This document shows positions 11,737 through 57,949 of a DNA stretch of 64,000 nucleotides, piece after piece; the stretch's first letter is position 1; every line of letters starts with the position of its first letter. This DNA comes from Candidatus Dojkabacteria bacterium (lineage in GTDB: Bacteria; Patescibacteriota; Dojkabacteria; SC72; JAHDCA01): positions 587,686 to 651,685 of the forward strand of contig CP129478.1 of the NCBI GenBank assembly GCA_030583845.1, in the 5' to 3' direction. The position numbers were made by a program, and so were the translations under genes. The notes beneath the pieces are model-generated. The model saw only the letters and a program-made list of their open reading frames with translations, did not search any database and was not told where the DNA came from.

Positions 11737-11903
11737 AGGTTCAACTGAATCTATAGATTTGGACGTAGTAGCTAGATCGATGAATTGCAACCCTCTCTCT
11801 TAGGCGACTGATGAGCTATCCTTCCCACCTCCCCTCATCCCTCATTTTAGTCTATAATAGACTATCCACTGTCCCATATACATTACCTATAAACCATCAA
11901 ACA

Positions 11904-13514: not shown

Positions 13515-13560
13515 CAAGGGCTTTTTTACACTTCCCTTTATAACTTCCACCAAAGATGCA

Positions 13561-24399: not shown

Positions 24400-24400
24400 G

Positions 24401-24561
24401 GCGCTAACCTATAATGCGTAGAATTGTACGGCTTATTAACCACCCGACCCACTTGCTTCGCAAGTGGTCGGGTGGTCGGGTGGCTAACCTTTATGGACTG
24501 TGATACTCTGATACTATCTACAGATTACAAATAAACTATTAACGCACTATGAGTTAGCGGC
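24401..24561. repeat. Composite nested palindromic element between the two surface paralogs, with family B half-sites flanking a family A hairpin.
   Basis: GCGCTAACCTATAATGCGTAG at 24401-24421. A CCACCCGACCCACTTGC-ttc-GCAAGTGGTCGGGTGG hairpin at 24440-24475. AACGCACTATGAGTTAGCGGC at 24541-24561 is the near reverse complement of the first half-site. Confidence 0.6.
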
Positions 24562-24810
24562 ATGAATAAGAAGAAGTTATACGTAATAATTGGGATTATC
24601 GCACTTTCGCTGGGCATCGCGGCGGTCAGCTTCTGGTTTGTAAATAGCAAAGCTCCCGATGTTGTGAATGTGACCAATGTGACATCGTCATCCGCGACAA
24701 TCTCGTGGGTAAGCGATGAAGCCGAACCCGGCAAGGTAATCGTCAAACGGGGTAATTACCCATTTCCATTCCAGCCGCGTAATGCAGAGCACGCAGGTAT
24801 ATTTCGATGA
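24562..24810 (+). CDS. Surface protein paralog 2, N-terminal fragment (TM anchor plus start of the FN3/PAP-N-like domain). It is truncated by a frameshift and continues in 24782-27853.
   Basis: MNKKKLYVIIGIIALSLGIAAVSFWF then SSATISWVSDEAEPGKVIVKRGNY. The stop is created at GGT ATA TTT CGA TGA. Paralog 1 reads RAGFDDRD at the same point, and here FDDRD continues in the +1 frame. Confidence 0.6.
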   Translation: MNKKKLYVIIGIIALSLGIAAVSFWFVNSKAPDVVNVTNVTSSSATISWVSDEAEPGKVIVKRGNYPFPFQPRNAEHAGIFR

Positions 24811-27800: not shown

Positions 27801-27853
27801 ACTTCTTGAGAATCGTTGAAGGTGAGGGACTTTGGACACCCGACGCACAATAG
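24782..27853 (+). CDS. Surface protein paralog 2, main part. It has the rest of the FN3/PAP-N-like domain, a ~550-aa Cys-rich region (more than 60 Cys) and the conserved C-terminal domain.
   Basis: YYTHHVTVVGLEPDTKYDFMVGTGNFFY completes the domain. Cys-rich repeats read CxxGxxC...CC. The C-terminus is GFNFVSFPFVNASYMATASDLLTYLNSEY...GWNLIGVNSGS...KARYEGLQKE...YGFDFPVDNRSSYFLRIVEGEGLWTP. Confidence 0.65.
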   Translation: MQSTQVYFDDRDVAEWEVNNASSESASVELPDLTDDEIGLYYTHHVTVVGLEPDTKYDFMVGTGNFFYRATDHDGANEFTTAAIADEIDTPDPAYGKIVATGETMSDLIPVVDANVYFYVENSFGDVLTNRISATLNDEGSWYLDLNTLYDSEGEVFFSTIPEEETELYKEVVEVHVPSGDIYMKRISPSEDTPAEDMLLIEDYKVEKAIEGEPPLSGLASSAYAWDLTCPNGKKLHADAADEASFIAVYGASQAQSKWEQEASGYCGDPNTPSWQEGQPTVQLTDEVCAVTYTETGAFGSNDGCEYNCVGMGHRTIGGDCKNEWGNGSYCQKKDPNCGTVCVGGEVCKQGDFCISGDYQCCTAGCNVRGSEGGSSGSGNGSGTPTNPSVCPNKKPDNATERCGEDNVCNTGEWCGDLNGVSCKCGEGTVECGMVCTQSISEGKVAVKVCCLYHGVPSLLTNYTGECPIGWQEGTQNQCKTTAGTLPTEPVCCKPPSGEDIWMYTPSGQCEAPLVSSTCPAKPKPVPLPINQSTPAPVVTSGSEYTNTCTVEPNQRCGDCKGQVGEANGITYMCTDIGAGSFLYWWKAVVPAGERCPDGNECICVTRGGDGSIEHYSGDHNCNSLAQPAGSLTPIGNNQQCPADSNGCFCDTQNGYIYPGSWCGYAVSCDANNVGSVCNNDGTTCEFTEGQTATYTTLGGDTKTMPWDECQNTPECINGYPQVRSGEYTCTGPTASSLDNGSDLISEASTAVLGAGTGRSVKVSPQNNAVAIDDSGIYCTAVDAQEYCFELTDAAENILYADLNGNNTYEEGTDLLVSQDGRELELQQQNTTFDYQMVKGFNFVSFPFVNASYMATASDLLTYLNSEYSNGFYSIAKFEAGRWRIVGNREGDNYGSEDFPLVPGEGYLFKANLDILISLSGQRITEPVPVYIATGWNLIGVNSGSDESKYTAESLIDDVNSTEGLTAVNLSRWSTSKARYEGLQKEDVDGTAQVYGFDFPVDNRSSYFLRIVEGEGLWTPDAQ

Positions 27854-37779: not shown

Positions 37780-38976
37780 ATGAAAATTTTGACCAAGATT
37801 GTAAATATTCTGCTTGTTGTTGCCGCGTTTGTGGTGGTTGTGCCTCAGGTTCCAGGATATCAAGCTGTCAAAAGAGAAGATCTTGGTTTTGATGAAGGTC
37901 TCTCAAGCAAAGACGCTGCACTATATGCATTTCCAGGTAAGATATTAATAACACAGGTCGAAGCTCCAAATACCGCGATGGAATCTGACCCGGAATCATG
38001 GATCGATCTGCTCTACTACTACTACATCACAAGACTCGGTTTTGGCGACCTACCATACACCTATCTGGTTGATAAGTCGGGCACAGTGTACGAAGGCCGC
38101 TCGAATTATGAGGGAGTTGTGCCAGAGCTGCTGGATGCAGAAGGTGCTGTGCTAATTGGCTATCTATCAAATGGTGCCGATGTTACCTCTGCAGCAGCAG
38201 ATTCAATCAACGAGCTGGTCGAAGAGGTCTCATATAAATATGGAATCACTCGTGAAAATGTAGAGGCCGTTGACCTTGAAGTATCTCAGCAGACTGCTGA
38301 AGGTGAGCTGAGCAAGCTCGAGTATAAGAGTACTGATTCAATGTTTGCAGATGAGCTTGATCAGATCCTTTCAAAGGTTACATATTCCGATAGAGAAAAT
38401 TTGAGCTTTAAGGCAGCTGTCAGCGAGGTAAGCTTCGAAGAGAAGGTGCCGATCGGCGGGAAGCTAACTGTGAAATTCAAACTGAAGAATGATGGCGATA
38501 CTCCATGGTTTACACTGAACGATTTTGTCTATGTGGTCACATCAAGCAACGAAGATAGTCAATTTGCGGTAAATGGTGAGTGGGATAGCTTCGATACACC
38601 AACCCATGTTGAGGGCAAGACTGTGTTGCCTGGCGAGAGCGTAGATATTGAGTTCCAGATGGCAGCCAATACAATGCCTGGTGAGTACTCTGAGAGCTTC
38701 AAATTTAGCCGTACTGGTGGTAAAGATCTGCAGGGTGGTGAGTTTGAAGTTAAGTTCACAATCGAGCAGGGCGATGTCCAACTGATTGAGATCACAGAAA
38801 CTGAGACCGGTAATCTAAATGTCCGCAAAGACCCAAATCTTGGGGCACAGGTGGTTGGACAGGTTGATTCCGGCGCAATCTTTGTAGTTAAAGAATCGCA
38901 AAATAACTGGTATAAGATTGAATATGAGCCTGGCGCAGATGGCTGGGTGATCGGTAGATATATAAAGCGGCTTTGA
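37780..38976 (+). CDS. Secreted amidase_2/PGRP-like domain protein with a C-terminal bacterial SH3 (SH3b) domain. The catalytic Zn ligands are possibly substituted.
   Basis: Signal/TM ILLVVAAFVVVVP. LGFGDLPYTYLVDKSGTVYEGR resembles the amidase_2 GYHFLI..DG.I..GR block but lacks the His residues. The C-terminus TGNLNVRKDPNLGAQVVGQVDSGAIFVV...NNWYKIEY..GADGWVIGRYI has an SH3b signature. Confidence 0.55.
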   Translation: MKILTKIVNILLVVAAFVVVVPQVPGYQAVKREDLGFDEGLSSKDAALYAFPGKILITQVEAPNTAMESDPESWIDLLYYYYITRLGFGDLPYTYLVDKSGTVYEGRSNYEGVVPELLDAEGAVLIGYLSNGADVTSAAADSINELVEEVSYKYGITRENVEAVDLEVSQQTAEGELSKLEYKSTDSMFADELDQILSKVTYSDRENLSFKAAVSEVSFEEKVPIGGKLTVKFKLKNDGDTPWFTLNDFVYVVTSSNEDSQFAVNGEWDSFDTPTHVEGKTVLPGESVDIEFQMAANTMPGEYSESFKFSRTGGKDLQGGEFEVKFTIEQGDVQLIEITETETGNLNVRKDPNLGAQVVGQVDSGAIFVVKESQNNWYKIEYEPGADGWVIGRYIKRL

Positions 38977-39049
38977 ACTACCCGACCACTTGGCGTTTAT
39001 CGTATAGTGAGCAGCACTTTGCCACCTAGCCAAGTGGTCGGGTAGTTTT
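38976..39049 (+). repeat. Family A palindromic element, likely the terminator after gene 37780-38976.
   Basis: Perfect 19-bp stem AACTACCCGACCACTTGGC / GCCAAGTGGTCGGGTAGTT with a 34-nt loop and a TTTT tail. Confidence 0.6.
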
Positions 39050-39059
39050 ACCAATAAAG

Positions 39060-41078
39060 ATGAAAGACAATACCTTCCTTGAACAATTAAACACGCCTCA
39101 GAGAGAGGCTGCAGAGCATGTTGATGGCCCGTTGCTTATTTTTGCTGGTGCAGGGTCGGGGAAAACTCGCGTTCTTACCTACCGAGTCGCGAACCTAGTT
39201 ATCAACCACGATGTGAAGCCGCACAATATCCTCGCTGTAACGTTCACCAAGAAAGCTGCACAGGAAATGCTTGAGCGTATCAACAATATCTTGCTTGAGA
39301 AAAGTCCAGACATCTCTGAGCGACCACACATAGGAACATTTCACTCGATATCTGCCCAAATCTTGCGGCGCGAGGGGAAATATCTTGGATTTGATAGCAA
39401 TTTCTCAATTTATGATACGAGCGATTCAGAGGGACTGATCAAGGAGCTGATGCTCGCTGCAAACCTTGATGTGAAGCAGTTTAAGCCGGCGGTGATAATG
39501 CATATGATAGGTGCAGCGAAAAACGATATGGTGAGTCCTGATCAATTTGCATTTCATTATGCTGGTTTTATAGAGGATATTGCAGGTCAGATATACCCTG
39601 AATATCAGAAGCAGCTGCTTGAGATGAATGCAATGGACTTCTCGGATCTGCTCTACTATGTAGCCGAGCTTTTTACAAAACAGCCAGACATCCTCGAGAA
39701 GTATAAGAATCTTTATAAGTACATCATGGTCGACGAGTATCAAGATACCAATAAGGTTCAGTACACCATAATAAAGAAGCTTTCAGAGGCGAGCAAAAAC
39801 CTATGCGTGGTTGGTGACGATGATCAAAGCATCTATAAATGGCGTGGGGCAGACATCCACAATATCATATCTTTTGAACGCGATTTCGATAATGTAAAGA
39901 TCGTCAAGCTTGAGCAGAACTATCGCTCAACAGACAACATAATTAAAGCTGCAGTTGCAGTTATCCAGCAAAATAACGAGCGTGTTGAGAAAGAGCTTTG
40001 GACCGATAAGGGCGAGGGTGACAAAATAACGGTATACCAGGCTAGAGATGAGAAAGGCGAGGCGCAATTCATTGTGGATGAGATTACTCAGCTCAAGAAT
40101 AACCGCTACTACAAGCTTGGTGATTTTGCCGTCCTATACCGCACCAACTACCAGTCGCGTGTAATCGAGGAAGAGCTGCTCAAGCGGGGCATCCCTTACA
40201 AATTGGTTGGGGGCTTCAGATTTTATGATCGCAAAGAGATCAAAGACCTTCTCTCCTACCTGCGCGTCGCCAATAACCTGAAAGACGACATCAACCTATA
40301 CCGAGTTATCAATGTGCCCGCCCGCAAGATGGGCCCAACCTCGCTCGCCAAACTGGTGCAAACTGCTCGTAAATGCAAGACATCCGCGGCAGAAATGTTG
40401 GCAATTGCCTATATTCTTGGGCGAAACGACTTAAACATTAGCGACTACGAATTCGACCAGACCAAGGTCGACGCTGTGGATAAGTCTCTCGACGAGCTGC
40501 TTAAATTTCAGAAAGTTGTGGATATCTTCGGTGGTCTATACGCAGCTGCGCAAGATATGAATGTGATGGAGCTGCTAACAGAGCTGCTCAATAGGTCGAA
40601 GTATATTGAATCGTTTGACGACGGTAGTGAGCTTGCCGAATCGCGCAAAGAAAACGTGCAGGAGTTAAGAAACCTTGCAGCCAGCTATGCCGAAAAGTAT
40701 GGCGCAAAATCGCTAAATAAATTCCTGCAAGATATCGCACTTATTGAGGAGGAGCAGGAGAAGAGCAAGAAAGAAAGCTCAGCTGGGGCTGTTACATTGA
40801 TGACGCTTCACTCTTCGAAGGGGCTGGAGTTCCCAGGTGTATTTATGATCGGAATGGAAGAAGGAATAATGCCTCACTCAAGGTCTTTTACCGATCCTAC
40901 CGAATTAGAAGAGGAGCGTAGACTCTGTTATGTAGGGATTACGCGTGCACAGGAGAGGCTTTGGATGACCTTCTCAGAAGCGAGGACGCAGATGGGTGGC
41001 TACAGCGATCAGATACCGTCAAGATTCCTGGGTGAAGTGCCACAGGAGCTGTGTGAATATTACAGCTGGAATATCTAG
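39060..41078 (+). CDS. pcrA: ATP-dependent DNA helicase, UvrD/PcrA/Rep family.
   Basis: Walker A GAGSGKTRVLTYR, DEYQDTN (motif II) and the helicase motifs of SF1A. Length is 672 aa. Confidence 0.9.
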   Translation: MKDNTFLEQLNTPQREAAEHVDGPLLIFAGAGSGKTRVLTYRVANLVINHDVKPHNILAVTFTKKAAQEMLERINNILLEKSPDISERPHIGTFHSISAQILRREGKYLGFDSNFSIYDTSDSEGLIKELMLAANLDVKQFKPAVIMHMIGAAKNDMVSPDQFAFHYAGFIEDIAGQIYPEYQKQLLEMNAMDFSDLLYYVAELFTKQPDILEKYKNLYKYIMVDEYQDTNKVQYTIIKKLSEASKNLCVVGDDDQSIYKWRGADIHNIISFERDFDNVKIVKLEQNYRSTDNIIKAAVAVIQQNNERVEKELWTDKGEGDKITVYQARDEKGEAQFIVDEITQLKNNRYYKLGDFAVLYRTNYQSRVIEEELLKRGIPYKLVGGFRFYDRKEIKDLLSYLRVANNLKDDINLYRVINVPARKMGPTSLAKLVQTARKCKTSAAEMLAIAYILGRNDLNISDYEFDQTKVDAVDKSLDELLKFQKVVDIFGGLYAAAQDMNVMELLTELLNRSKYIESFDDGSELAESRKENVQELRNLAASYAEKYGAKSLNKFLQDIALIEEEQEKSKKESSAGAVTLMTLHSSKGLEFPGVFMIGMEEGIMPHSRSFTDPTELEEERRLCYVGITRAQERLWMTFSEARTQMGGYSDQIPSRFLGEVPQELCEYYSWNI

Positions 41079-41144
41079 CCCGACCACCCGACTACTTGCG
41101 AAGCAAGTGGGTCGGGCAAGTGGTCGGGTGGTCGGGCTAGTTTA
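41075..41144. repeat. Family A palindromic element with an internal duplication, shared by the convergent pcrA and rpfB-like genes (bidirectional terminator candidate).
   Basis: The left arm CTAGCCCGACCACCCGACTACTTGC pairs with GCAAGTGGTCGGGTGGTCGGGCTAG (1 mismatch). An extra GCAAGTGGGTCGGG copy sits in the loop. Both stop codons lie inside the element. Confidence 0.6.
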
Positions 41145-42126
41145 CCAGTCGTGTGCAGGCAGGCCAATGGTGTGCAGCACCACCTGAACGATAAATTGTG
41201 AGGGAGATTCTAAGCTGCTGATAACCATCCCAAATATTGGTACCGCCATATCCAGCGAAAGTCCTTTCGGAGAACTGCATTAAGCCTTTGTAGAGCCCTC
41301 CATTATTAGCACCTGCATAGCAGCCAGACTCACACCTCATCACAGATTTGAGCCAGTATCGTTCTGCATCGCTGCCAGTGATCTGGTCAATATAGCTATC
41401 CCACTGTACACAGCTGTTATTCAACCCTGGGACTGTGCTGAAATCAATTCTTTCTCTAGTTCCGACTTTGGTGATCTTGTTTACGACAGGTGTGACCATT
41501 TTCTGGTCAGTGACTTTCTCTTCAACCATCTGGCCATCATGGAATGTCCTTAAGATTGTTATCTCTTTCACACCATTCTGCCCTTCTTGTGTTACAAGTG
41601 ATGTGCCAACATACATGCTCGAGTCATTTACCTGCTCAGACCTGAATGGGACTATCTCTGTAACTGTCTCAAATGTTTTCTCAACTTTAACCAGTTTTAC
41701 GAGGAGGTTGTCGCTGATCTTAGTATCAAGATCTGGGGTGATAATATAGTCATCGACGTTGATCCCTAATGTTTTGACCACATCTCCGACAGTTGCTCCG
41801 TATATAAGCTCGGTAGTTACACCATCTACATTTTCTACTTTTACCATTACAATATTCTCTCCGTCGATAACTAGACGGTCATCATCCTCAAATTTGCTTG
41901 AGAAAGTGTGTGAGAAACGTTCGCTTGAGAGTTCTGATGCTCCGAGTACTGCCTGCTCATAAGCAGAAACAGAACGGCCTGTAGAAATAAAGCTGTGGAA
42001 AAGTGACGATAACACGAGAAAGGTCAAGACGTAGGCAGTAAAGGAAAAGATTCGCTTACTTCTTCTGCGTCTGTTTGAGGCTCTCAGGAGTCTACTATAA
42101 CTGCGATTGTGCAGCGGTATACTCAC
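41137..42126 (-). CDS. rpfB: Resuscitation-promoting factor RpfB-like protein: membrane anchor, DUF348-like region, G5 domain and a C-terminal Rpf-type transglycosylase-like domain.
   Basis: The C-terminal CESGCYAGANNGGLYKGLMQFSERTFAGYGG...HHWPAC fits the Rpf domain pattern (CESGGNW...GYYGGLQFS..TW...GG...W..C). The G5-like block is GQNGVKEITILRTFHDGQMVEEKVTDQKMVTPVVNKITKVGT. Confidence 0.7.
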   Translation of the reverse strand: MSIPLHNRSYSRLLRASNRRRRSKRIFSFTAYVLTFLVLSSLFHSFISTGRSVSAYEQAVLGASELSSERFSHTFSSKFEDDDRLVIDGENIVMVKVENVDGVTTELIYGATVGDVVKTLGINVDDYIITPDLDTKISDNLLVKLVKVEKTFETVTEIVPFRSEQVNDSSMYVGTSLVTQEGQNGVKEITILRTFHDGQMVEEKVTDQKMVTPVVNKITKVGTRERIDFSTVPGLNNSCVQWDSYIDQITGSDAERYWLKSVMRCESGCYAGANNGGLYKGLMQFSERTFAGYGGTNIWDGYQQLRISLTIYRSGGAAHHWPACTRLVN

Positions 42127-42389
42127 TTTTTCTTTAATTAATATCTTAATTCCATCGCTACATCTAATCTCAAGAACTAGAAGTAACTCATGTTGCTTTT
42201 ACTCACTCTAGCCGTCTGAATAATAACAGTCTGACCAGTGGTGCAACTTATGAGGCTACCATGCGGCAAACTTCGTATTTGCCCGTTGGTACGCTGTTTT
42301 TGATGGAACGGTGCATACTAACATATATTTGACAAGAAGTCACATAAGTAACTAGTATGTAGGTAGCACAATTAAGAAATAGTATTCTC

Positions 42390-43820
42390 GTGGAAGAAAA
42401 ATTTCAAGAGGGCGAAATCTCAAAGATTTCATTAAAAGATAATGAAGTGTCTGCCCAAGAACAGAAAAATAAGAAAGGTAGTAAGAATATGCCGGGTAAG
42501 CCTAAGAACAAAAAGTGGCTAACACTCCTTATGGTTGTGACAGGTATACTGCTTCTCGTACTAGTCGGGCTTATCGGTTATCGATTTTTCGCAAGATCTT
42601 CATCGAAAGATAAGTATGAGGCTCTTATGCTTGAGGCTGCCGGGCAGCACGACGATCAGGAGTACTCGCTTGCACTTGCTACATATAATGAGGCTCTCGC
42701 ACTTGATCCCACATTCCCTTCTGCATATATAGGTGTATTAAATATATTGCTCGAAAAGAACCTCGCTGATGATGCCGAAGAATTTGTAGCCGGTGCCGAA
42801 GAGATAATCGGTGGTGGAGATATGGCCGAGCTATATCTGCTTATGGCTGACTATTACTATGATGCTAAGGCTTGGGACAAAGCATATGCTTACTATGCAA
42901 AGGTCGGCAATCTCGAGGGAGAATCAATCGATCGATTTGCTATCGCCTCTGTAAACTCGCAAGAAGAGGATTGGAAATCACTTACCAGCCAGGTAAGCGA
43001 TGAGAAATTGCAGACTGTACTTCAGCAATATTCAGACATAAGCACCCAAAGTGATACAGATCTTTATGATCGAGCCAAGTTGGCTCAATTGGCCATCAAC
43101 GCCAAGGCTTACTACTTTGCGGTGAATCTGCTAAAGGATGATCAAGATCTGCCAGATTATTGGGATGGGCTCTACTATGTTGGGCGGGCCTACTACGAGC
43201 TGGGTGAGTATGAAAGAGCCGCCGACTACCTTGACCAGGCAGTACAGATTGCCCCTGAAGATCCAGCCTTACAGCTACTTGCTGCTCGTAACAGCGTACA
43301 AGATGGAAATCGTGATCTAGCATTCAGTCATTACGATCAGTACATCTCCTATTCAAAAGGTGATGGAGCTGACCAGGCAGTACTCATTGAATATATTGAG
43401 CTCTTGATTGAGGCGGAGAGATATTCGAAAGCGCTCGAGGTAATTTCTGAGCAAGAGACATCAACAGATGAGCTTGAGCTTCTAAAATTGCAGGTCTATA
43501 TCGCTCAGAAGGATAGCTCTGAGGTTATCCAGCTACTTGATAGGATGGAGTCGACCGTGGCTCCTGGGTCAGATAGCTATTATATGTATATCTGGTTAGC
43601 TGCTCTTTGGTATATCGAAGAGGGCCAATTCACAAAAGCAGAGGGATTGCTCTCACCAGTTGAGGAAGCGACTGCACAAGATCCGTACTATTTCTATGTA
43701 ATGGGCAGGCTAGTCGATGCAAAGGGTGACGAAAAAGGTGCTGATGAGTACTTTAAACTTGCTGTGGAGAAAGACCTGGAGGGTGAGGTGTCAAAATTGG
43801 CACTCAACTATATCCAGTAG
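42390..43820 (+). CDS. Membrane-anchored TPR-repeat protein.
   Basis: N-terminal TM WLTLLMVVTGILLLVLVGLIGY. Repeated A/L/Y-rich 34-residue TPR-like units (LALATYNEALALDP..., YYVGRAYYELGEYERAADYLDQAVQIAP...). Confidence 0.6.
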   Translation: MEEKFQEGEISKISLKDNEVSAQEQKNKKGSKNMPGKPKNKKWLTLLMVVTGILLLVLVGLIGYRFFARSSSKDKYEALMLEAAGQHDDQEYSLALATYNEALALDPTFPSAYIGVLNILLEKNLADDAEEFVAGAEEIIGGGDMAELYLLMADYYYDAKAWDKAYAYYAKVGNLEGESIDRFAIASVNSQEEDWKSLTSQVSDEKLQTVLQQYSDISTQSDTDLYDRAKLAQLAINAKAYYFAVNLLKDDQDLPDYWDGLYYVGRAYYELGEYERAADYLDQAVQIAPEDPALQLLAARNSVQDGNRDLAFSHYDQYISYSKGDGADQAVLIEYIELLIEAERYSKALEVISEQETSTDELELLKLQVYIAQKDSSEVIQLLDRMESTVAPGSDSYYMYIWLAALWYIEEGQFTKAEGLLSPVEEATAQDPYYFYVMGRLVDAKGDEKGADEYFKLAVEKDLEGEVSKLALNYIQ

Positions 43821-43947
43821 CCGCCCCGTTAACTTATAGTACGTGCATCAATAGTGTATTCATAGCCTTCCTTTCAATTTATGAATTCTAAATAAGTGAA
43901 ACTGCTGCAGCAATTAAGACTTGACGCACTATAAGTTAGCGGGGCGG
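43821..43947 (+). repeat. Family B palindromic element (long-loop version) immediately after the TPR gene stop.
   Basis: CCGCCCCGTTAACTTATAGTACGTGC (43821-43846) pairs with GACGCACTATAAGTTAGCGGGGCGG (43923-43947), separated by a 76-nt loop. Confidence 0.55.
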
Positions 43948-43957
43948 CAGGCGGTAC

Positions 43958-43986
43958 TTGCATTAGTTGCTCGCCGCATATATACT
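43958..43986 (+). promoter_or_regulatory. Candidate fusA promoter (TTGCAT, 17-nt spacer, TATACT).
   Basis: -35 box at 43958-43963 and -10 box at 43981-43986. The leader is about 125 nt. Confidence 0.35.
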
Positions 43987-44114
43987 CCACAGCAGCCAAT
44001 CACCCCGTTAGTTCGCAGCCAACCTATCAGCTGATATCTTGAGTATCCACCTGATTTATTGCGAGCTGACGAGATGGTCGGAAGCGACTATATATTAATT
44101 AATGTATTAAAAAT

Positions 44115-46205
44115 ATGGCGAACATATCTTATAACGTAAAGTTCGATCTTAAAAAGATTCGAAATATTGGTATCATCGCACACATCGACGCTGGTAAGAC
44201 TACAACTACCGAGCGATTGCTATTCTTCACTGGACAGATCCACAAGATCGGTGAGGTTCATGAAGGTGCAGCGACCACTGACTTCATGGAGCAGGAGAAG
44301 GAGCGTGGTATCACCATTATGTCAGCAGCTGTAACATGCTTCTGGAAATATAAGGGAGAGGATTACCGAATCAACATCATCGATACACCAGGCCACGTAG
44401 ACTTCACTGCAGAGGTAGAGAGGTCACTCCGAGTATTGGACGGTGCGGTTGTAATCTTCGACGGTAAGATGGGTGTTGAGCCACAGTCTGAGACAGTATG
44501 GAGGCAGGCAAACAAGTATAAGGTTCCTCGCATGTGCTTTGTAAACAAGTTGAACCTACTCGGTGGAGACTTCGAGATGTCACTTGCTTCTATTAAGGAG
44601 CGACTCACTCCAAATGCAGTTGCAATTACACTTCCAATGGGACGTGAGCAGCAGCTATATGGAACTATCGACCTGATCGAGATGAAAGCATATAAGTACG
44701 AGACAGTAGATGACCTCGATATGAAAGAGGTTGAGATCCCTGCTGAGTATAAGGATAAGGCCGAAAAATTAAGAGCAGAGCTTATTGAGAAGCTTGTTGA
44801 GCAGGATAATGCACTTATGGAGAAATACTTTGCTGGCGAGGAGATCAAAGAAGAAGAAATGCTTGAAGCATTGAGAAAGGGTACATTGAGCATGAATATC
44901 TTCCCAGTAATGGGTGGAGACTCACGAACAGCTATTGTAAAGAGGTTGTTAGACAAGGTTGTGACATGCCTCCCATCACCAATTGATGACGGTGGTGCAG
45001 ATGGTACACACCCAAAGACAGGTGAAGAGATGCATCGTGATCCAGCTGAGACCGAGCCATTCTCCTCGTTGGTATTCAAGATTGTAAATGACCCACACGT
45101 TGGAAACCTATCCTACTTCAGAATCTACTCTGGAAAGGTAAGTGCAGGTACATATGTATACAACTCAACACAGGGTGCACGAGAAAGAATCGGTCGATTG
45201 GTGTTGATGCATGCTGAAGATCGAGAAGAGGTAAGTGAGCTACGTGCTGGAGATATTGGAGCGATAGTTGGTCTAAAAGACTCAAACACTGGTGATACTC
45301 TCTGTGAAGAGGGTAATCAGATAGTGCTTGAAAAGATCCAGTTCTCAGAGCCGGTTGTATCGCAGGCTATCGAGCCGAAGTCGAACGCCGATGAAGAGAA
45401 GATGGGTATGGCTCTCGCAAGATTGGTCAAGGAAGATCCTACATTTAAAGTATCTTCAAACCATGAGACAGGCCAGACGATTATCTCAGGAATGGGTGAG
45501 CTTCACCTCGAGATCAAGGTAGATATCATGAAGAGAGACTTCGGCGTCGAGGTAAATGTAGGTAAGCCACAGGTTGCATACCGAGAGACAATCAAGGCGG
45601 TACGTGAGCAGGAAGGTAAGTATGTGAAGCAGTCAGGTGGTAAGGGTCAATATGGACACTGCTGGTTGAGGCTTGAGCCAAATGAAGTTGGAAAAGGCTT
45701 TGAGTTCCTGAATGAGCTAAAGGGTGGGTCGATCCCACGTGAGTATGTGCCTGCTATTCAGAAGGGCGTTGAAGAGGCTATGAAGTCAGGTGTCGTTGCA
45801 GGATACCCAATGGTTGATGTTAAGGTCGCAGTATACGATGGCTCATACCACGAGGTTGACTCTTCGGAGGCAGCATTCAAAGTGGCAGGATCGATGGCCT
45901 TGCGCGAAGGTGCCAGAAATGCAAACCCAGTTCTTCTTGAGCCAGTCATGAAGTTGGAAGTAACTGTGCCTCATGAGTACCAGGGTGATATCACAGGTGC
46001 GATCAGCAGCAAGCGTGGTGAGATCCGCGAGACTGAGGCAGCACACAACCTGCATATTGTGCATGCGTTTGTGCCTCTTGCAGAGCTTTTCGGATTCACA
46101 TCGGAGTTGCGATCGATCACAAGTGGTCGTGGTAACTCGAGCATGGAGTTCTCACACTATGCAGAGGTTCCAAGGCATATTGCCGAGGAAGTTGCTAAGA
46201 AATAG
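44115..46205 (+). CDS. fusA: Elongation factor G.
   Basis: [27 protein letters not shown] and the full five-domain length (696 aa). Confidence 0.95.
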
Positions 46206-46228
46206 CGTTTGGTCAAGGTTTAAGGCCG

Positions 46229-46285
46229 CCGCCCCGCTAACTTACAGTGAAGTTCTCACTATAAGTTAGCGGGGCGGTTTCATTT
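46229..46285 (+). terminator. Family B palindromic element acting as a probable intrinsic terminator after fusA.
   Basis: 22-bp stem CCGCCCCGCTAACTTACAGTGA / TCACTATAAGTTAGCGGGGCGG (1 mismatch), loop agttc, then TTTCATTT. Confidence 0.7.
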
Positions 46286-46328
46286 AATACCGCTCGCGAA
46301 AAATAGTGAAAAATATTGTGTAAAACGC

Positions 46329-46357
46329 TTGCATACCTCTGATCTTTTTGATAAGAT
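46329..46357 (+). promoter_or_regulatory. Candidate tuf promoter (TTGCAT, 17-nt spacer, TAAGAT).
   Basis: -35 box at 46329-46334 and -10 box at 46352-46357. An AT-rich leader follows. No tRNA was seen in the 270-nt spacer. Confidence 0.35.
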
Positions 46358-46478
46358 CCATTCGACGCCGACCACGGTAGGCAAAGCCGTAGCGGTAGTG
46401 CAATTGTGTGGTTATACAATAGAAAATCTGGTATAAACACATAATTGGGAAATTTTTAATTTTTTAATAATTAAGTAA

Positions 46479-47645
46479 ATGGCAGACTATCAAAGAGATC
46501 TACCACACGCCAATATTGGTACACTCGGTCACGTTGACCACGGTAAGACCACATTGGTTAGAGGTATCCTCCGAGCATTCTCAGAGGAAGCCGATAAGTT
46601 TATTGATAAGCTAGACAAGGATCCTATTGCCCGTGCAAAGGCAATCACGATCTCTGTTGCTCACGTTGAGGTAACTACACCTAACAGACACTACGCACTC
46701 GTAGACTGTCCAGGTCACAAGGACTACATCAAGAACATGATCACAGGTGCCGCACAGATGGACGGCGCAATCTTGGTTGTTTCTTCATCTGACGGAGCAA
46801 TGCCTCAGACAAGAGAGCACTTGCTACTCGCTCGACAGGTTGGTGTGCAGCATTTGGTTGTTGCTATCAACAAGTTCGGTGAAGTTGATCCTGAAATTAT
46901 GGAATTGATCAAGGCCGACATCCAGGGCTTGCTCGAGAAATATGGATACGACGCAAGTACACCTATTGTTGAGGTTGATGCACTCAAGGCATTCAATGGT
47001 GAAGCAGAGGGTATCGAGAGCGTTAAGAACCTTATGGCAGTAGTCGACGAGAAGATCCCTCTCCCAGAGAGACCTCTTGATCAGCCATTCTTGATGCCAG
47101 TTGAGGATGTATTCTCAATTGAGGGTCGAGGTACAGTTGTAACAGGAAGAATCGAGAGAGGTGTAATCGCACTTAACGGTGAAGTAGACATCCTCGGAAT
47201 GGGTCGAAAAGACCAGAAGACAGCTGTAACTGGAATCGAGACATTCAACAAGCCAATGAAGGAAGGTCAGGCAGGCGACAACGCAGGTCTCCTCCTCCGT
47301 GGTTTGAAGAGAGAAGATGTAGAGCGAGGTCAGGTTCTTGCAGCTGCAGGCTCAGTAAAGACACACACAGACTTCAAGGCTGAGGTTTATGTACTTAGCA
47401 AGGAAGAGGGTGGTCGACACTCACCATTCACATCAGGATATAAGCCACAGTTCTATGTAAGAACTGCAGATGTGACAGGTGAAGTTAAGCTCCCTGATGG
47501 AGTAGAGATGGTAATGCCAGGAGAGAATGTTGAGCTCCAGGTTACATTGATCGCTCCTGTGGTTGTTGAGCAGGGAATGAAGTTTGCTATCCGTGAGGGT
47601 GGTAGCACAGTAGGTCACGGGGTTGTAACAGAGATTACTAACTAG
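46479..47645 (+). CDS. tuf: Elongation factor Tu.
   Basis: [10 protein letters not shown] and DCPGHKDY motifs. Length is 388 aa. Confidence 0.95.
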
Positions 47646-47653
47646 TCAGTAAA

Positions 47654-47702
47654 CTCCCCCGCTAACTTATAGTGAGAAGCTCACCATAAGTTAGCGGGGG
47701 AG
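47654..47702 (+). repeat. Family B palindromic element after tuf (hairpin or attenuator between tuf and the S10 operon).
   Basis: CTCCCCCGCTAACTTATAGTGA-gaagc-TCACCATAAGTTAGCGGGGGAG, a 22-bp stem with 1 mismatch and no clean T-tract. Confidence 0.65.
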
Positions 47703-47740
47703 AACTAAGAATTATTTTATTTGCTCTTTGATTAAAGGAA

Positions 47741-48061
47741 ATGGCAAACAAACTACCAAAAATTCGAGTCAAACTTGAAGGTTATGACCCGGTTGTTGTT
47801 GATAAGTCCGTAAAAAGTCTTGTTGAAGCTGCTGTAGGTACAGGTGCAAAAGTCGCGGGACCGGTTCCACTCCCGACTCGAAGCCAGAAGTTTGCCGTAA
47901 ACCGATCGCCTCATGTGTATAAGAGCTCTATGGAGCACTTTGTAGTGAGGAAGCATAAGAGACTGGTCGATATTGTGGAACCAACTGCCAAGACTATAGA
48001 TGCATTACAGCATCTCCAGATGCCTTCTGGTGTGGGTATTGAAATTCAGCAAGTGAATTAG
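47741..48061 (+). CDS. rpsJ: 30S ribosomal protein S10.
   Basis: KIRVKLEGYDPVVVDKSVKSLVEAAVGTGAKVAGPVPLPT is a canonical S10 sequence. Confidence 0.95.
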   Translation: MANKLPKIRVKLEGYDPVVVDKSVKSLVEAAVGTGAKVAGPVPLPTRSQKFAVNRSPHVYKSSMEHFVVRKHKRLVDIVEPTAKTIDALQHLQMPSGVGIEIQQVN

Positions 48062-48113
48062 ATTTGGGTGGCCACTTAAGAAAAGGCTGCTAAATGGTTA
48101 ACTAACGAAAGAT

Positions 48114-48698
48114 ATGAAATACATTCTAGGTATTAAAAAGGGAATGACAAGGGTATTTGATGGTGACCACTCTGTCGCTGTCACAGTTGTTGACGTTGAT
48201 GGCTGTAAAGTCTCTTTTGCTGATGATAAGGGCTACGAGCTTGGAATTGGCAGCAAAAAGGGTAATGGCGCAGCAGTCGGCAAGTATAAGAAATATGGCT
48301 CTGTCCCGAGATATACACAATGGGTTTCGACAAAGCTTGATGATGGCATGGAGGTAGGTAGTGATGTAAGTACAGATGGATTTGAGAAAGGCGTTAAGGT
48401 AAATGTAAAGGCTACAACAAAGGGTAAGGGTTTTGCAGGTGTAGTTAAGAGATGGGGTTTCCATGGTGGTCCTAAGACCCACGGTCAGTCAGATAGGCAT
48501 AGAGCTCCTGGCTCGATCGGTGCAGGTACAGACCCAGGTAGGGTATTGAAGGGTAAGAGAATGGCTGGAAGAATGGGTGGTGATCAGATTACTGTTAAGA
48601 ATAAGATGATTGTTGATAAGAAAGAGAATTATCTATTGGTATCTGGGGCAATCCCAGGATCAAAGGGAAGCAAAGTTTTAATTGCAGTAGCCGAATAA
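48114..48698 (+). CDS. rplC: 50S ribosomal protein L3.
   Basis: ILGIKKGMTRVFD and FAGVVKRWGFHGGPKTHGQSDRHRAPGSIG are L3 signatures. Confidence 0.95.
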   Translation: MKYILGIKKGMTRVFDGDHSVAVTVVDVDGCKVSFADDKGYELGIGSKKGNGAAVGKYKKYGSVPRYTQWVSTKLDDGMEVGSDVSTDGFEKGVKVNVKATTKGKGFAGVVKRWGFHGGPKTHGQSDRHRAPGSIGAGTDPGRVLKGKRMAGRMGGDQITVKNKMIVDKKENYLLVSGAIPGSKGSKVLIAVAE

Positions 48699-48703
48699 TT
48701 GAC

Positions 48704-49291
48704 ATGAATTACGAAGTAGTAGACCTAAAAGGAAAGAAGACAGGTGACAAGGTAGAGCTAAATGATGCTGTATGGGCAGCACCTTTTAACGCGGATCTTG
48801 TTGCACAGGTTGTAAACGTGTTTAGGTCTAACCAGAGGTCAGGTACAGCACATGCAAAAGGCAAGGGTGATGTAAGCGGTGGTGGTAAGAAGCCATGGAG
48901 ACAGAAGGGTACCGGTCGTGCAAGACATGGATCGATCCGCTCCCCTCTATGGGTTGGTGGTGGTGTAACATTCCTCCCTAACTACCGAAATTGGAAGCGC
49001 GGCATCAATAAGAAAATGAAGGTAAACTCGCTCAAGTCAATTCTATCGAAGAGACTTGGAGATAACGAATTGATGATTGTAGATTTTGGCAAGGCAGATC
49101 GAAAATCATTTGAAGAGAAAGGAAAGGTGCTTTTCGTGACTTCAGATAAGGATACATATATGAAATTTAGAAATGTCGGAAATGTGCAGCTTGTATCAGG
49201 TATGGATCTGCACACCTACGATATCTCTATATGTAGAAAGATCTATGTTGATAAAGAGGATTTAAGTAAGTTGGAGGGTAGGCTCTCATGA
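48704..49291 (+). CDS. rplD: 50S ribosomal protein L4.
   Basis: KKPWRQKGTGRARHGSIRSPLWVGGGVTF is the L4 signature. Confidence 0.95.
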   Translation: MNYEVVDLKGKKTGDKVELNDAVWAAPFNADLVAQVVNVFRSNQRSGTAHAKGKGDVSGGGKKPWRQKGTGRARHGSIRSPLWVGGGVTFLPNYRNWKRGINKKMKVNSLKSILSKRLGDNELMIVDFGKADRKSFEEKGKVLFVTSDKDTYMKFRNVGNVQLVSGMDLHTYDISICRKIYVDKEDLSKLEGRLS

Positions 49292-49578
49292 AAAGAAATG
49301 CTATAATACAGCCCGTTATTTCGGAGAAGAGCTACGACATGGCAAACGCTCAGAACAAGTATGTTTTCTATGTCGATCCTGCAGCTTCTAAAGTAGAAAT
49401 TGCCAAGGCGATAGAGGGTGAATACAAGGTCAAGGTTGTATCAGTAAATACAACAGTCCGACCTGGCAAGATTAGGAGAGACTGGAGATACTCTAAGTCT
49501 ACCCGAATCTCTGACCGCAAGAAGGCAGTTGTGAAATTGAAAGATGGAGATAAGATTGATGATTTCTTTAACTTCTAG
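49288..49578 (+). CDS. rplW: 50S ribosomal protein L23.
   Basis: IQPVISEKSYDMANAQNKYVFYVDPAASKVEIAKAIE is L23-like, and the gene sits at the conserved L4/L2 position. Confidence 0.9.
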   Translation: MKRNAIIQPVISEKSYDMANAQNKYVFYVDPAASKVEIAKAIEGEYKVKVVSVNTTVRPGKIRRDWRYSKSTRISDRKKAVVKLKDGDKIDDFFNF

Positions 49579-49580
49579 AG

Positions 49581-50432
49581 ATGGCAACAAGGAAATTTAA
49601 ACCAACAACCGCATCAATGAGAGGTACAAGGCTTGAAGATAGGTCTTACCTCGCCAAGGAGAAGGGTCCAAGGTCATTGACAACATCGAAGAGGAAAATT
49701 ACCGGTCGAAACAACCAGGGTAGGATCACTGTACGCCATAGAGGTGGTGCACAGAAGCGAAGATTGAGGATTATTGACTTCAAGAGAGATAAATTTGATA
49801 TCCCTGGAGAGATTGTAAACTTCTACTTCGACCCTAACCGATCTGCAAACCTAGCATTGGTACAGTATACCGATGGCGAGAAGCGATATATAATCGCACC
49901 TCGAGGGATGTCAGTTGGAGATAGTGTTGTCTCTGGTGAGAAGACAGACGTGCTTGTAGGAAATGCAATGAAATTGAAGAATATTCCTTCAGGTACTGAA
50001 GTGCACTGTGTTGAGCTTACACCTGGCAAGGGTGCAAAGCTTGGACGGGCAGCAGGCCAGGTGATTGTTGTTCTGGGTGTTGATTCAACAGGTAAATATG
50101 TGCAGCTAAGGATGTCATCGGGCGAGGTACGATTAGTACATGGTGAGGCTATGGCTGTAATTGGACAGGTTGGAAACGAAGATCGAATGAATATGAAGCT
50201 TGGTAAGGCTGGACGAAAGAGAAGGCTTGGCTGGAGACCAGAGGTACGAGGAATGGTGATGCATCCTGCACAGCACCCACATGGTGGTGGTGAAGGTAAG
50301 GGTGTAATCGGTGGACCAGCAAAGGATATTTATGGAAACAGAGTTGGCGTGAAGACAAGAAAGAATAAGAGAACTGATAGATTTATTGTAAGGATGAGAA
50401 GGTCTAAGACAAGGCCTTACGCGAAGAAGTAA
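49581..50432 (+). CDS. rplB: 50S ribosomal protein L2.
   Basis: The L2 motifs MHPAQHPHGGGEGK and KTRKNKRTDRFIV are present. Confidence 0.95.
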   Translation: MATRKFKPTTASMRGTRLEDRSYLAKEKGPRSLTTSKRKITGRNNQGRITVRHRGGAQKRRLRIIDFKRDKFDIPGEIVNFYFDPNRSANLALVQYTDGEKRYIIAPRGMSVGDSVVSGEKTDVLVGNAMKLKNIPSGTEVHCVELTPGKGAKLGRAAGQVIVVLGVDSTGKYVQLRMSSGEVRLVHGEAMAVIGQVGNEDRMNMKLGKAGRKRRLGWRPEVRGMVMHPAQHPHGGGEGKGVIGGPAKDIYGNRVGVKTRKNKRTDRFIVRMRRSKTRPYAKK

Positions 50433-56576: not shown

Positions 56577-57857
56577 ATGTTTATAGACGGCCTACAAAGA
56601 TTCCTGACCTCTCTAAGGTCAACGGAGATCAGAGATAAGATTTTTTTCTCTTTGTTAGTCATAGTTGTATTTAGGGCACTCGCTGCTGTGCCTGTTGTCG
56701 GCATTACCGCCGATACGATGGCTCAATTGAGTGGAATTATCGGCGCAGGTGGCACAATCTCAGCTGTCACAGGAGGTGTGCTAGAAACTGCATCGGTAAT
56801 TGCGCTAGGGGTTGGTCCATATATCTCAGCATCGATCATACTTCAGCTACTTGGAACGATAGTCCCGAGGCTTGAAGAGCTTAAGAAAGAAGGCTCATCA
56901 GGCAGAAGGGTTATCTCAATGTACACCCGATATCTTGCTGTGCCTCTTGCGATAATGCAGGCAATCTTGATCTACTCGACTCTACGAGGGTACGGCTTGA
57001 TGGGCGAGCTTGAGCTCCTGCCATTGGTTACAATGATTGCCACGCTTACAGCTGGAGCTATGTTGATGATGTGGATCGGCGAGCTTGTGACTGAGTCTGG
57101 ATTAGGAAATGGCTCTTCGTATATTATCTTCTTAGGAATTGTGGCGACCATTCCTGGTATATTTTCGGCAAACCTCCAGTCGGCAGATGCGCTGCAGATG
57201 GTTTGGTTCTTCCTGATCATATTGGGGATGATTGCAGTTGTTATCTTTATTACCGAGGGTGAACGAAGGCTTCCTGTGACATATTCAAGAAGGGTGCGGG
57301 CGACTGGGAATCAAGACAGCTATATCCCGGTAAAATTGACCCAGTTCGGTGTAATGCCGGTGATCTTTGCGTCGTATGTGCTTGCGTTGCCTACCGCGAT
57401 TGCCTCATTCATCGTGAGTCCGAATCGTGAGAATGTAGTCTCCGATAGGATGGTTGATTTCGCAAACCAGGTGCTTGAATGGAGCAATGATCCGTGGGTT
57501 CAGGTTGTAGTGACCTTTGTGCTTGTGATACTTTTCTGCTTCTTCTATGTGACAATTGTATTCAACACCGACGAGTATGCCGAGAACCTCCAGAAGCAGG
57601 GCGCATTCATCCCGGGTATCAGGCCTGGTGCACAAACTGCTAGATATCTCAGGATGGTCTCTTTCAGGCTAACTACGGCAGGTGCGCTTTTCCTCGCAAT
57701 TTTGGCTGTATTGCCAACTGTTTTGGTGGCTGGAGGGGTACTGGTAGCCGCAATATTCACAGGTACGGGGCTGCTCATCATGGTTAACGTGGCATTGGAT
57801 ATGAGAAGGCAATATAACTCACTGGTAGTAGTCAGAAGTTACGAGAAGTATATCTAA
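56577..57857 (+). CDS. secY: Preprotein translocase subunit SecY.
   Basis: Ten-TM topology, conserved IRDKIFFSLLVIVVFR...GISASIILQLL, and position after rplO. Confidence 0.95.
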   Translation: MFIDGLQRFLTSLRSTEIRDKIFFSLLVIVVFRALAAVPVVGITADTMAQLSGIIGAGGTISAVTGGVLETASVIALGVGPYISASIILQLLGTIVPRLEELKKEGSSGRRVISMYTRYLAVPLAIMQAILIYSTLRGYGLMGELELLPLVTMIATLTAGAMLMMWIGELVTESGLGNGSSYIIFLGIVATIPGIFSANLQSADALQMVWFFLIILGMIAVVIFITEGERRLPVTYSRRVRATGNQDSYIPVKLTQFGVMPVIFASYVLALPTAIASFIVSPNRENVVSDRMVDFANQVLEWSNDPWVQVVVTFVLVILFCFFYVTIVFNTDEYAENLQKQGAFIPGIRPGAQTARYLRMVSFRLTTAGALFLAILAVLPTVLVAGGVLVAAIFTGTGLLIMVNVALDMRRQYNSLVVVRSYEKYI

Positions 57858-57923
57858 TGTCCGACCACTTGGCGGCACTAGAAGAATAAATATCCAAAGC
57901 TATGGTCGCCAAGTGGTCGGACA
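57858..57923 (+). repeat. Family A palindromic element after secY (likely terminator).
   Basis: Perfect 17-bp stem TGTCCGACCACTTGGCG / CGCCAAGTGGTCGGACA with a 32-nt loop, starting at the base after the secY stop codon. Confidence 0.6.
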
Positions 57924-57949
57924 GTTGATAACTTTAGCCCTAGCTATTC

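Follow-up and report, generated by a model that had tools for sequence, protein, structure and literature searches.

Short palindromic repeats between genes are known from several bacterial systems, of which repetitive extragenic palindromic (REP) sequences, the MITEs (miniature inverted-repeat transposable elements) and the intervening sequences (IVSs) of rRNA genes are the closest to the one considered here. Correia elements are transcribed as long hairpins, which RNase III cleaves, and they can carry promoter-like boxes. In the leader of E. coli pnp, a hairpin cut by RNase III mediates autoregulation. The genomes of Patescibacteria are tiny and poor in repeats and, to our knowledge, almost nothing is known about how these bacteria end, process, or insulate their transcripts. 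Short non-intron insertions without an open reading frame (ORF), located at the classical IVS sites of 23S genes of the candidate phyla radiation (CPR), have been reported but left uncharacterised in a 2024 survey (PMC11270868). The present analysis concerns a palindromic repeat, called family B, in a stretch of 64,000 nucleotides of Candidatus Dojkabacteria bacterium (assembly GCA_030583845.1, contig CP129478.1, positions 587,686 to 651,685), which is referred to as the window. We favour the view that family B is a lineage-wide, non-autonomous selfish palindromic repeat of Dojkabacteria-type Patescibacteria, similar to REP sequences, MITEs, and IVSs, that is transcribed as long stems and of which some copies have been co-opted; to this reading we give about even weight.

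Five inverted-pair loci are present in the window, as the first-pass annotation had claimed. Two of these are short hairpins. The one 3′ of fusA (46229-46277) has arms of 22 nt at 46229-46250 and 46256-46277 that are 95 % complementary and separated by a loop of 5 nt, while the one in the tuf-rpsJ gap (47654-47702) has 23-nt arms at 47654-47676 and 47680-47702 (96 % complementary; loop of 3 nt). The near-perfect stems had been recognised correctly; the end of the fusA hairpin was moved from 46285 to 46277, beyond which only weak A-U pairs follow up to 46286. Two long-loop versions had also been indicated: one 3′ of the stop codon of the TPR gene (43820-43948; 25-nt arms at 43820-43844 and 43924-43948, 92 % complementary, 79 nt apart) and one in the rpsO-pnp leader (13558-13719; 23-nt arms at 13558-13580 and 13697-13719, 87 % complementary, 116 nt apart). 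The fifth locus, previously seen as half-sites around a hairpin of a second palindromic family (family A), is a degenerate pair (24400-24561) with weaker arms at about 24400-24420 and 24541-24561 that enclose the family A hairpin at 24436-24487. None of these elements is assigned to a strand. A sixth copy, with perfect arms of 28 nt, was found 2.7 kb past the window end at 11450-11508 of locus L178 (L numbers denote fetched loci), which is from the same strain and 100 % identical to the window across an overlap of 9 kb. Six family B copies are known from 81 kb of the strain, all of them intergenic. With arms of 19-28 nt that are 87-100 % complementary, the inverted pairs have the terminal inverted repeats (TIRs) of MITEs, and the short copies of 49 nt are extragenic multicopy palindromes as REP sequences are.

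The arms of the five pairs share the consensus (T)CCCGCTAACYTATAGTG of about 18 nt. Allowing up to three mismatches, the 23-mer CCGCCCCGCTAACTTATAGTGAG matches six times in the window and 0 times in 100 shuffled sequences, and the 16-mer core matches nine times against a shuffle mean of 0.34 (13561/13701, 24546, 43825/43928, 46233/46258, and 47658/47683). Family B is a dispersed repeat family that exceeds chance, as had been proposed, and the arm, about 18 nt long, is its unit. When folded, the short copies reach about -40 kcal/mol with z about -8.4 (fusA, -40.5 kcal/mol and z -8.3; tuf-rpsJ, -41.5 kcal/mol and z -8.5), and the long copies are still closed through their arms when folded, with z about -5.

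The left arm starts 0 nt from the stop codon in the case of the TPR gene and of the gene ending at 24399, and 8, 23, and 43 nt from it in the cases of tuf, fusA, and rpsO, respectively. The rpsO-side copy sits past the canonical intrinsic terminator of rpsO (13506-13529, plus strand; a short GC stem and TTTTTT), which is not part of family B. A position directly downstream of a stop codon, described earlier as invariable, is indeed the rule in the window (0-43 nt) but is too narrow for its relatives, in which copies are also located at tRNA and transfer-messenger RNA (tmRNA) ends and at the tips of rRNA helices. The fusA hairpin is followed by TTTCATTT, a partial T run. The tuf-rpsJ hairpin is without a T-tract and lies 38 nt before the ATG of rpsJ. 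The pair in the pnp leader is of the CTAACC subtype, and the pnp ATG is 33 nt past its end. In the 24400-24561 pair, the left arm is directly 3′ of a TAG stop and the right arm abuts an ATG at 24562.

To find out where else the motif occurs, 185,579 species genomes were scanned with the 16-mer CCGCTAACYTATARTG, which has two degenerate positions and for which about 10^3 chance matches were expected; most single matches are due to chance, and the evidence was restricted to genomes having several matches and the extended motif. Among the matches listed, one group of metagenome-assembled genomes (MAGs) recurs with several loci each against a background of single matches. These MAGs are labelled Dojkabacteria/WS6, a few of them Saccharibacteria or Nomurabacteria, and they have the extended consensus CCA-TCCCGCTAACTTATAGTG. 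Judged from these sequences, the motif belongs to a Dojkabacteria-type lineage of Patescibacteria; the PNPase encoded in the window, for its part, is 100 % identical to a protein from a Candidatus Dojkabacteria MAG. In a logo of 103 distinct sites, positions -2 to +14 are invariant at 86-100 %, with no conservation past the GTG end. Genomes of deep divergence (EF-Tu identity of about 75-80 %) have almost exactly the same motif, of which CTAACT and CTAACC are dialect-like variants. About 99 % of the sites are intergenic: 1 of about 114 is clearly coding, and none is in the window. The density is about one site per 7 kb. Sites are more numerous in convergent (10) than in divergent (4) gaps, and their orientation in co-directional gaps shows no bias (12 vs 10). 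A viral origin was dismissed, as a scan of the viral contigs of IMG/VR gave only seven isolated, chance-like matches lacking the CCC extension, four of which were from one phage, and thus no enrichment. Rfam 15 gave no match to the window at gathering score, and below this threshold only models of miRNA precursors, which is typical of any long hairpin. A literature search with the sequence string returned no relevant paper, and one on promoter motifs or repeats in Patescibacteria or Dojkabacteria nothing specific. No prior description of family B was found.

Conservation is confined to the arms, the C-rich end of which always points outward, towards the neighbouring gene. The distance between paired arms ranges from 3 nt to 592 nt; the latter, in L106, encloses a complete CYTH gene, and a pair in L060 encloses a tRNA-Leu gene with about 135 nt between the arms. 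Other enclosed lengths in relatives are 24-45 nt in rRNA copies, about 145 nt, and an interior of 343 nt at helix 25 of 23S rRNA. The interiors of the long copies in the window are unrelated to any fetched locus, save for the nested family A hairpin. A covariation test on pairs picked for recognisable arms showed 85.9 % of cells paired and 53 double-change cells against 23 in shuffles, a value reached by 0 of 500 shuffles. The double changes are mostly at copy-specific outer positions, outside the conserved core. The two arms of a copy are thus kept alike, from which selection on RNA structure does not follow by itself. In L011 (Dojkabacteria JBAYOB01), three copies (3931-4030, 6730-6830, and 7692-7790) have about 100 nt in common beyond the inner side of the motif and end in a degenerate second arm; they represent a longer, genome-specific version of the element.

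Occupancy was compared with relatives having the gene order SH3, UvrD, G5, TPR, fusA, tuf, S10 operon in common with the window, namely L121/L122, L123, and L124-L126, the EF-Tu of which is 92 %, 90 %, and about 79-80 % identical to that of the window, respectively. It differs between relatives at four of six comparable sites. The tuf-rpsJ gap carries family B in the window (3-nt loop), in L121/L122 (7 nt between the cores), and in L123 (34 nt), the last two distances shrinking to 1 and 28 nt, respectively, when arm extensions are counted; L124-L126 have a plain GC hairpin of 8-9 bp without a T-tract at this site. The TPR-fusA site is occupied in the window and has no family B in L121/L122, L123, or L124-L126. 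Between fusA and tuf, family B of the window corresponds to a transposase gene between its own AATCCCGGGGAT hairpins in L121/L122, to a family-A-like hairpin in L123, and to a stem with a T-tract, i.e., a terminator, in L124 and L125, with none evident in L126. Both the rpsJ-rplC and the rpsE-rplO site are empty in the window, where rpsE and rplO nearly abut, and carry family B in L121/L122; none is present in L124-L126, and L123 does not cover these sites. The rpsO-pnp pair is kept with 116 nt between the arms in the window, 31 nt in L175 (PNPase 87 % identical), and an interior of 4-18 nt in L176 (80 %). All three have the canonical T-tract terminator of rpsO, a conserved spacer, the family B pair, and pnp, in this order; the interiors differ and the arm subtype co-varies. 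No family B pair was found in the rpsO-pnp gap of L177 (PNPase 67 % identical), and none at all within 21 kb in L124-L126. In the 12-kb ribosomal protein part of L121 and L122, which are 99.3 % identical, 7 of the 21 differences are within about 90 nt of family B.

Presence of the element thus differs between close relatives, with fast variation at the strain level. Both outcomes of the conservation test proposed in the first-pass annotation were observed, as some copies (in the tuf-rpsJ gap and the pnp leader) are conserved at orthologous loci and others are not. Of the three possibilities named in the first-pass annotation (terminators, attenuators, or a miniature mobile repeat), the last fits best, as four of six sites vary and the differences between L121 and L122 concentrate in the elements. 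A miniature mobile repeat is the best-supported class, and a function as terminator or attenuator is at best a slot-specific side role.

Family B would spread, or be homogenised, as DNA, by transposition or by copy-to-copy conversion, and its copies would survive where genes and stable RNAs end and on the tips of helices in rRNA. An HUH enzyme specific for hairpins or single-stranded DNA would be the obvious candidate for the mobilising enzyme, because genes for structured RNAs carry the copies at their foot or tip. As all copies in the lineage of the window are inverted pairs, they are expected to be transcribed with the host transcript as near-perfect stems of 19-28 bp. These stems, which are not expected to be efficient intrinsic terminators, would most likely protect or process 3′ ends as substrates of RNase III, in the way of IVSs and Correia elements, and processing would then leave 3′ ends protected and cistrons separated instead of terminating transcription. 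Where a slot needs a hairpin, the copy has probably been co-opted, and this would include those in the tuf-rpsJ gap and the pnp leader; for the former this is suggested by the presence of a hairpin after tuf in every relative. The tuf-rpsJ copy could damp read-through from tuf into the S10 operon or stabilise the tuf mRNA, whereas the copy in the pnp leader could be a processing stem that parallels the one in E. coli.

An enzyme of this kind is encoded in the clade. At positions 9100-9860 of L121/L122, corresponding to 46206-46330 of the window, the minus strand of the fusA-tuf gap encodes a transposase of 209 aa of the REP-associated tyrosine transposase (RAYT) type. The protein of L121 is a true RAYT homologue (Y1_Tnp). 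Hairpins of its own, AATCCCGGGGAT-n4-ATCCCCGGGATT, stand on either side of the gene, which forms a REPtron-like unit at the site at which the window has family B. Mobilisation of hairpins by an HUH-type enzyme is therefore present in the clade, as the RAYT occurs in the closest relative. The RAYT at the fusA-tuf slot was nevertheless rejected as the mobiliser of family B since the hairpins flanking it are of a different family. No Y1_Tnp is present in the window, and when 120 RAYT homologues were used as tblastn queries, neither the window nor the other fetched loci gave a match. No family B was seen around the two nearest RAYT homologues (L134 and L135), of which that in L134 is flanked by GGTCAGACC hairpins.

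The position of the outer arm end in relatives is the most unusual finding. The motif-bearing loci, 582 kb in total, comprise 114 distinct sites, of which 27 start 0-7 nt past a tRNA or tmRNA 3′ end (same strand), against a chance expectation of about 0.05. The motif directly follows the discriminator base when CCA is not encoded, and follows CCA when it is (L150, and the tmRNA in L159 and L168). In L048, L079, and L060, the reversed motif ends exactly at position +1 of a tRNA, and in five cases the TAA within GCTAAC doubles as the stop codon of the upstream ORF. Inverted pairs were also detected inside rRNA genes; these come from the L161 rRNA operon and from L164, L157, L174, and L070, which are related loci. 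An Rfam alignment placed 57 extra nucleotides in the apical loop of 23S helix 45 of L161, at model position of about 1218; other pairs are at 23S helix 25 (L164/L161), in the 3′ domain of 23S, and at the 16S helix 44 tip. Among the sense-strand mismatches of the rRNA copies, G.U exceeds A.C by 12 to 2, which is the one indirect sign of an excision by RNase III. At six of the loci (L048, L087, L101, L104, L060, and L100), each tRNA has its own TATAAT-like box only 9-20 nt upstream, which implies that these tRNAs are individually transcribed with very short leaders. Many of the tRNAs at these loci are without an encoded CCA.

A number of observations weigh against a selfish, mobile nature of family B. 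No RAYT flanked by family B was found within the approximately 0.6 Mb examined, a Pfam scan of 67 ORFs neighbouring motif sites gave only housekeeping families and no transposase or integrase, and the flanks of the five window copies have no direct repeat in common that would represent a target-site duplication. Most sites in other Dojkabacteria are single arms, which are unable to form the long hairpin. Hidden partner arms were ruled out, as 76 single arms, each folded together with 25 nt of flank, gave -6.6 kcal/mol compared with -6.2 with shuffled flanks, and their sole intrinsic fold is a 5-bp internal mini-hairpin (CGCUA/UAGUG). These single arms are conserved at 17 of 17 positions beside the same tRNA in genomes with unalignable flanks, with perfectly kept motifs adjoining the tRNAs Val-GAC, Val-TAC, Ala-CGC, Ser, Asn, and Lys. 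This looks like purifying selection or strict targeting and not like decaying selfish DNA. In uvrD of Bin_334 (L108, 2314-2330), an exact 17-mer, CCCGCTAACTTATAGTG, is present in frame and encodes FPLTYSG; there is no change in length relative to six orthologues (FAFHYAG, YSLHYVG, YGLHYSG, and others), so this copy arose by substitution or conversion and not by simple insertion. Together with the conservation of the single arms, it favours constraint on the 18-mer itself. The mRNA-associated copies in the clade of the window have G.U and A.C mismatches at about 11 to 10, and this equality gives no direct sign of selection for an RNA stem. Finally, cleavage of the stems by RNase III is a step that we infer and do not observe.

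These points bear on a possible, though clearly less probable, reading in which the 18-nt arm is the lineage-wide recognition sequence of a conserved machinery of Dojkabacteria, serving either to punctuate transcripts or as the first CPR DNA uptake sequence. As punctuation, which we consider only tentatively, the 18-mer would be a site for a conserved DNA-binding protein or endoribonuclease marking the boundaries of stable RNAs and mRNAs for 3′-end formation or processing, and the palindromic pairs would be two such sites back to back; it would mark where tRNAs, tmRNA, rRNA segments, and mRNAs end in bacteria with a reduced repertoire of RNases and terminators, with the hairpins of the window as the paired instances. 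The location of 27 sites directly past tRNA and tmRNA 3′ ends, irrespective of an encoded CCA, agrees with this, as do the abutment of the outer end to tRNA 5′ ends and to ORF stops, five of which use the TAA of the motif, the perfect conservation at the same tRNAs despite unrelated flanks, the lack of mobile-element genes among the neighbours, and the retention of the pnp-leader and tuf-rpsJ copies across relatives. However, with orientations at about 12 to 10, an RNA-level signal would have to be read as two different sequences. Moreover, relatives with 79-80 % EF-Tu identity, having no family B in 21 kb, use ordinary hairpins in the same slots, occupancy is variable among close relatives with other hairpin families as substitutes, and an end-forming signal would be harmful inside rRNA helices or ribosomal protein operons unless the RNA is re-joined or the break tolerated. 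Improbable, to our mind, is that the 18-mer is the substrate preferred by the competence machinery in these bacteria, which scavenge DNA, and accumulated by uptake-biased recombination, with its pairs doubling as hairpins in the manner of the Neisseria uptake sequences. Such an uptake sequence would explain the indifference to orientation, the near-exact conservation across deep divergence with CTAACT and CTAACC dialects, the pairs after genes, the lack of enrichment in viral contigs (the seven chance-like matches), and the in-frame uvrD copy of Bin_334, which arose without an indel as do genic copies of known uptake sequences. A third or more of the uptake sites of Neisseria and Haemophilus are coding, but here this is the case for only 1 of about 114 sites and for none in the window. 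The density of about one per 7 kb is also far under that of known uptake sequences, neither the exact abutment to tRNA and tmRNA ends nor the insertion of additional nucleotides into rRNA helices would be expected from a point-mutational drive, and positions flanking the arms co-vary within pairs.

That the copies are ordinary intrinsic terminators or attenuators of merely similar sequence is very improbable, even though they are 3′ of stop codons in slots that have terminator-like hairpins in relatives (a stem and T-tract after fusA in L124 and L125, and a hairpin after tuf in all of them) and the fusA copy is followed by TTTCATTT. An arm of 17-23 nt that is identical at five loci and occurs in other genomes is impossible by convergence. 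Four of the five copies have no U-tract, a terminator scan of 40000-50000 did not call any copy, and the long versions have interiors of 79-116 nt. Relatives carry copies within the S10/spc operon and in rRNA genes, those of L121 at rpsJ-rplC and rpsE-rplO leave no space for new promoters, and rpsO already possesses a canonical terminator, which lies upstream of the pair. The general role as terminator entertained in the first-pass annotation is contradicted by this negative scan and by the S10/spc copies, and also by the separate promoters 3′ of the fusA/tuf copies. Its remark that the tuf-rpsJ copy lacks a T-tract was correct, and a function as attenuator or 3′-stabiliser is plausible there; it would belong to the slot rather than to family B, as distant relatives have a plain GC hairpin without a T-tract in the same place. 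A promoter element, with the TATAGT/TATAAG core as -10 box and the GC-rich end as discriminator, is the least probable of these alternatives. Some tRNAs do fit: in L048 and L079, the reversed motif ending at +1 puts TATAAG or TATAGG 7 nt upstream with no other -10 box near, and in L100 the forward motif has TATAGT 8 nt before a tRNA. Most tRNAs, however, have their own TATAAT 9-20 nt upstream, and most copies are 3′ of tRNAs on the same strand and, as promoters, would direct antisense transcription. There is no -35 partner, and fusA and tuf have separate conserved promoters with TTGCAT and a -10 box. Both of these are sigma-70-like and on the plus strand: that of fusA (43958-43986; TTGCAT, 17 nt, TATACT) lies just past the TPR-gene copy, and that of tuf (46329-46357; TTGCAT, 17 nt, TAAGAT) lies downstream of the fusA hairpin. 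The fusA promoter block acttgcattag...atatatactcc is kept in L121, L122, and L123, which are without the TPR-fusA element, and the tuf block gcttgcatacc...tttttgataagatccattcg is kept in L121 and L123. As a general role, promoter activity was rejected on account of the tRNA boxes, the antisense direction, and the separate fusA and tuf promoters.

Family A, the second palindromic family in the window, is represented by a hairpin with CCCGACCACTTGGC arms at 38976-39047 and by further copies at 41075-41140, 57851-57930, and 24436-24487, none of them assigned to a strand. It has 13 matches in the window against 2.85 expected. The hairpin nested within the 24400-24561 pair matches family A at 41079-41136, and the L178 copy at 11450-11508 is a chimera of the two families, in which the outer part joins the core of family A, CCCGACCA, to TCCCGCTAAC. 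Where the window has family A at gene ends, relatives have single arms of family B or plain hairpins; the convergent UvrD/G5 slot of Dojkabacteria Bin_334, for instance, has a family B single arm in place of the family A hairpin.

Some further observations were made around the copies. The gene 3′ of the 24400-24561 element seems to be split by a frameshift, as an 82-aa ORF (24562-24810) with a signal-peptide-like N-terminus overlaps a 1023-aa ORF (24782-27853) that begins within a purple-acid-phosphatase N-terminal domain; the split reflects programmed frameshifting, a pseudogene, or an error in sequencing. At 24562 the start codon abuts the right arm of the element and, therefore, no space is left for a free ribosome-binding site. 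Upstream of rpsJ, a (t)GCTCTTT block about 10-20 nt before the start (window 47715-47740) is kept in L121-L126 while the remaining spacer varies, and it may serve the S10 operon as a signal for translation or in the leader; a GGAGG resembling a Shine-Dalgarno sequence is not evident in this spacer. The PNPase of the window has 759 aa, about 40-60 residues more than most listed homologues, and its 3′ part (15880-16032) encodes a long Arg/Gly-rich C-terminal tail (...GGRGGDRGGRGGYGGSRGGSDRRGGRGRGGYGDRDGGRRDYNRY) that is unusual among bacterial PNPases. The stretch between infB and rpsO (5155-13064 in the window, 1555-7369 in L176) resembles a variable defence island. In the window it contains a methylase gene of a type I restriction-modification system (HsdM_N/N6_Mtase, 5155-6738), a T5orf172/GIY-YIG-like gene (8076-8693), and an ORF of 1031 aa, and in the same place L176 has Cas12a (Cpf1) together with Cas4, Cas1, and Cas2.

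One sequence family ties together three things that are usually considered separately: the extragenic palindromes that follow highly expressed genes, the short insertions seen in rRNA genes of the CPR, and the sequences directly beside tRNA and tmRNA genes. If selfish, it is a hairpin element that is placed with unusual precision beside structured-RNA genes; if a host signal, it would expose a new system for end formation or DNA uptake, and either host-signal reading would be considerably more novel than the selfish one. In practical terms, the motif is a lineage marker and a source of assembly breaks and strain variation, and, for the genetic tools under construction in these bacteria, it offers a candidate module for processing or insulation.

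Several described systems resemble family B in part. The sequence shared with integron attC sites amounts to ...AAC/GTT... boxes near the base of the stem, and both are imperfect palindromes directly 3′ of stop codons with a variable terminal structure (3 to more than 100 nt). The attC sites differ from family B, which has near-perfect stems without extrahelical bases, GCTAAC instead of RYYYAAC, core housekeeping, rRNA, and tRNA neighbours, and no integrase nearby; an attC nature was rejected on the basis of the core flanking genes, the missing integrase, and the perfect stems. The DNA uptake sequences (DUS) of Neisseria and the uptake signal sequences (USS) of Pasteurellaceae are, like the family B arm, short, orientation-independent motifs that are conserved in deep clades with dialects and often form inverted pairs after genes, and one genic copy of family B was formed in frame without an indel. 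Family B is about ten-fold sparser, however, almost never coding, fixed at stable-RNA ends, and inserted in rRNA helices.

The classes to which we compare the selfish repeat are closer. Similar to the IVSs of 23S rRNA, the pairs of relatives take the place of helix 45's apical loop and are also located at helix 25, the classical sites excised by RNase III, and they form extended perfect stems. Unlike IVSs, family B also occurs in mRNA intergenic regions and tRNA flanks, and the window itself has no rRNA gene, its copies being intergenic. MITEs and the Correia elements (Correia repeat enclosed elements, CREE, or Neisseria miniature insertion sequences, NEMIS) have in common with family B the TIR-like arms of about 20-26 bp, the many intergenic copies, and the lack of a known transposase, and the TATA-like core of family B resembles the promoter-like boxes of Correia elements. 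The MITE comparison fails in that there is no TA or other duplication, no shared interior, no size class (3-592 nt between the arms), and no parent insertion sequence among the 67 neighbours; the minimal form of family B is two arms and a loop of 3-5 nt. Further differences are the single arms that are common in relatives and the copies within rRNA genes.

REP sequences, with the derived bacterial interspersed mosaic elements (BIMEs) and REP doublets forming hairpins (REPINs) that depend on RAYTs, are, like family B, short extragenic palindromes dispersed as tens to hundreds of copies, most of them at the 3′ ends of genes, and are transcribed as stable hairpins. Neither has a target-site duplication or an internal transposase, and a RAYT homologue occupies the fusA-tuf slot in the closest relative of the window. 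Unlike REP sequences, family B has no GTAG/CGTC tag: the tag is absent from the logo of 103 sites, in which the upstream positions read CCATCC, and GTAG precedes only two of the five window copies, where it is part of the stop codon. In addition, the RAYT of the clade has other hairpins, and the unit of family B is a non-palindromic 18-mer that also occurs singly, has an arbitrary spacer (3-592 nt) when paired, and is conserved far past the species level. The conservation of only the arms around an arbitrary cargo, the single arms fixed at tRNA and tmRNA ends, and the sharing of one motif by mRNA spacers and rRNA helices throughout a deep clade of Patescibacteria are features that are undescribed for REP sequences, MITEs, and IVSs alike.

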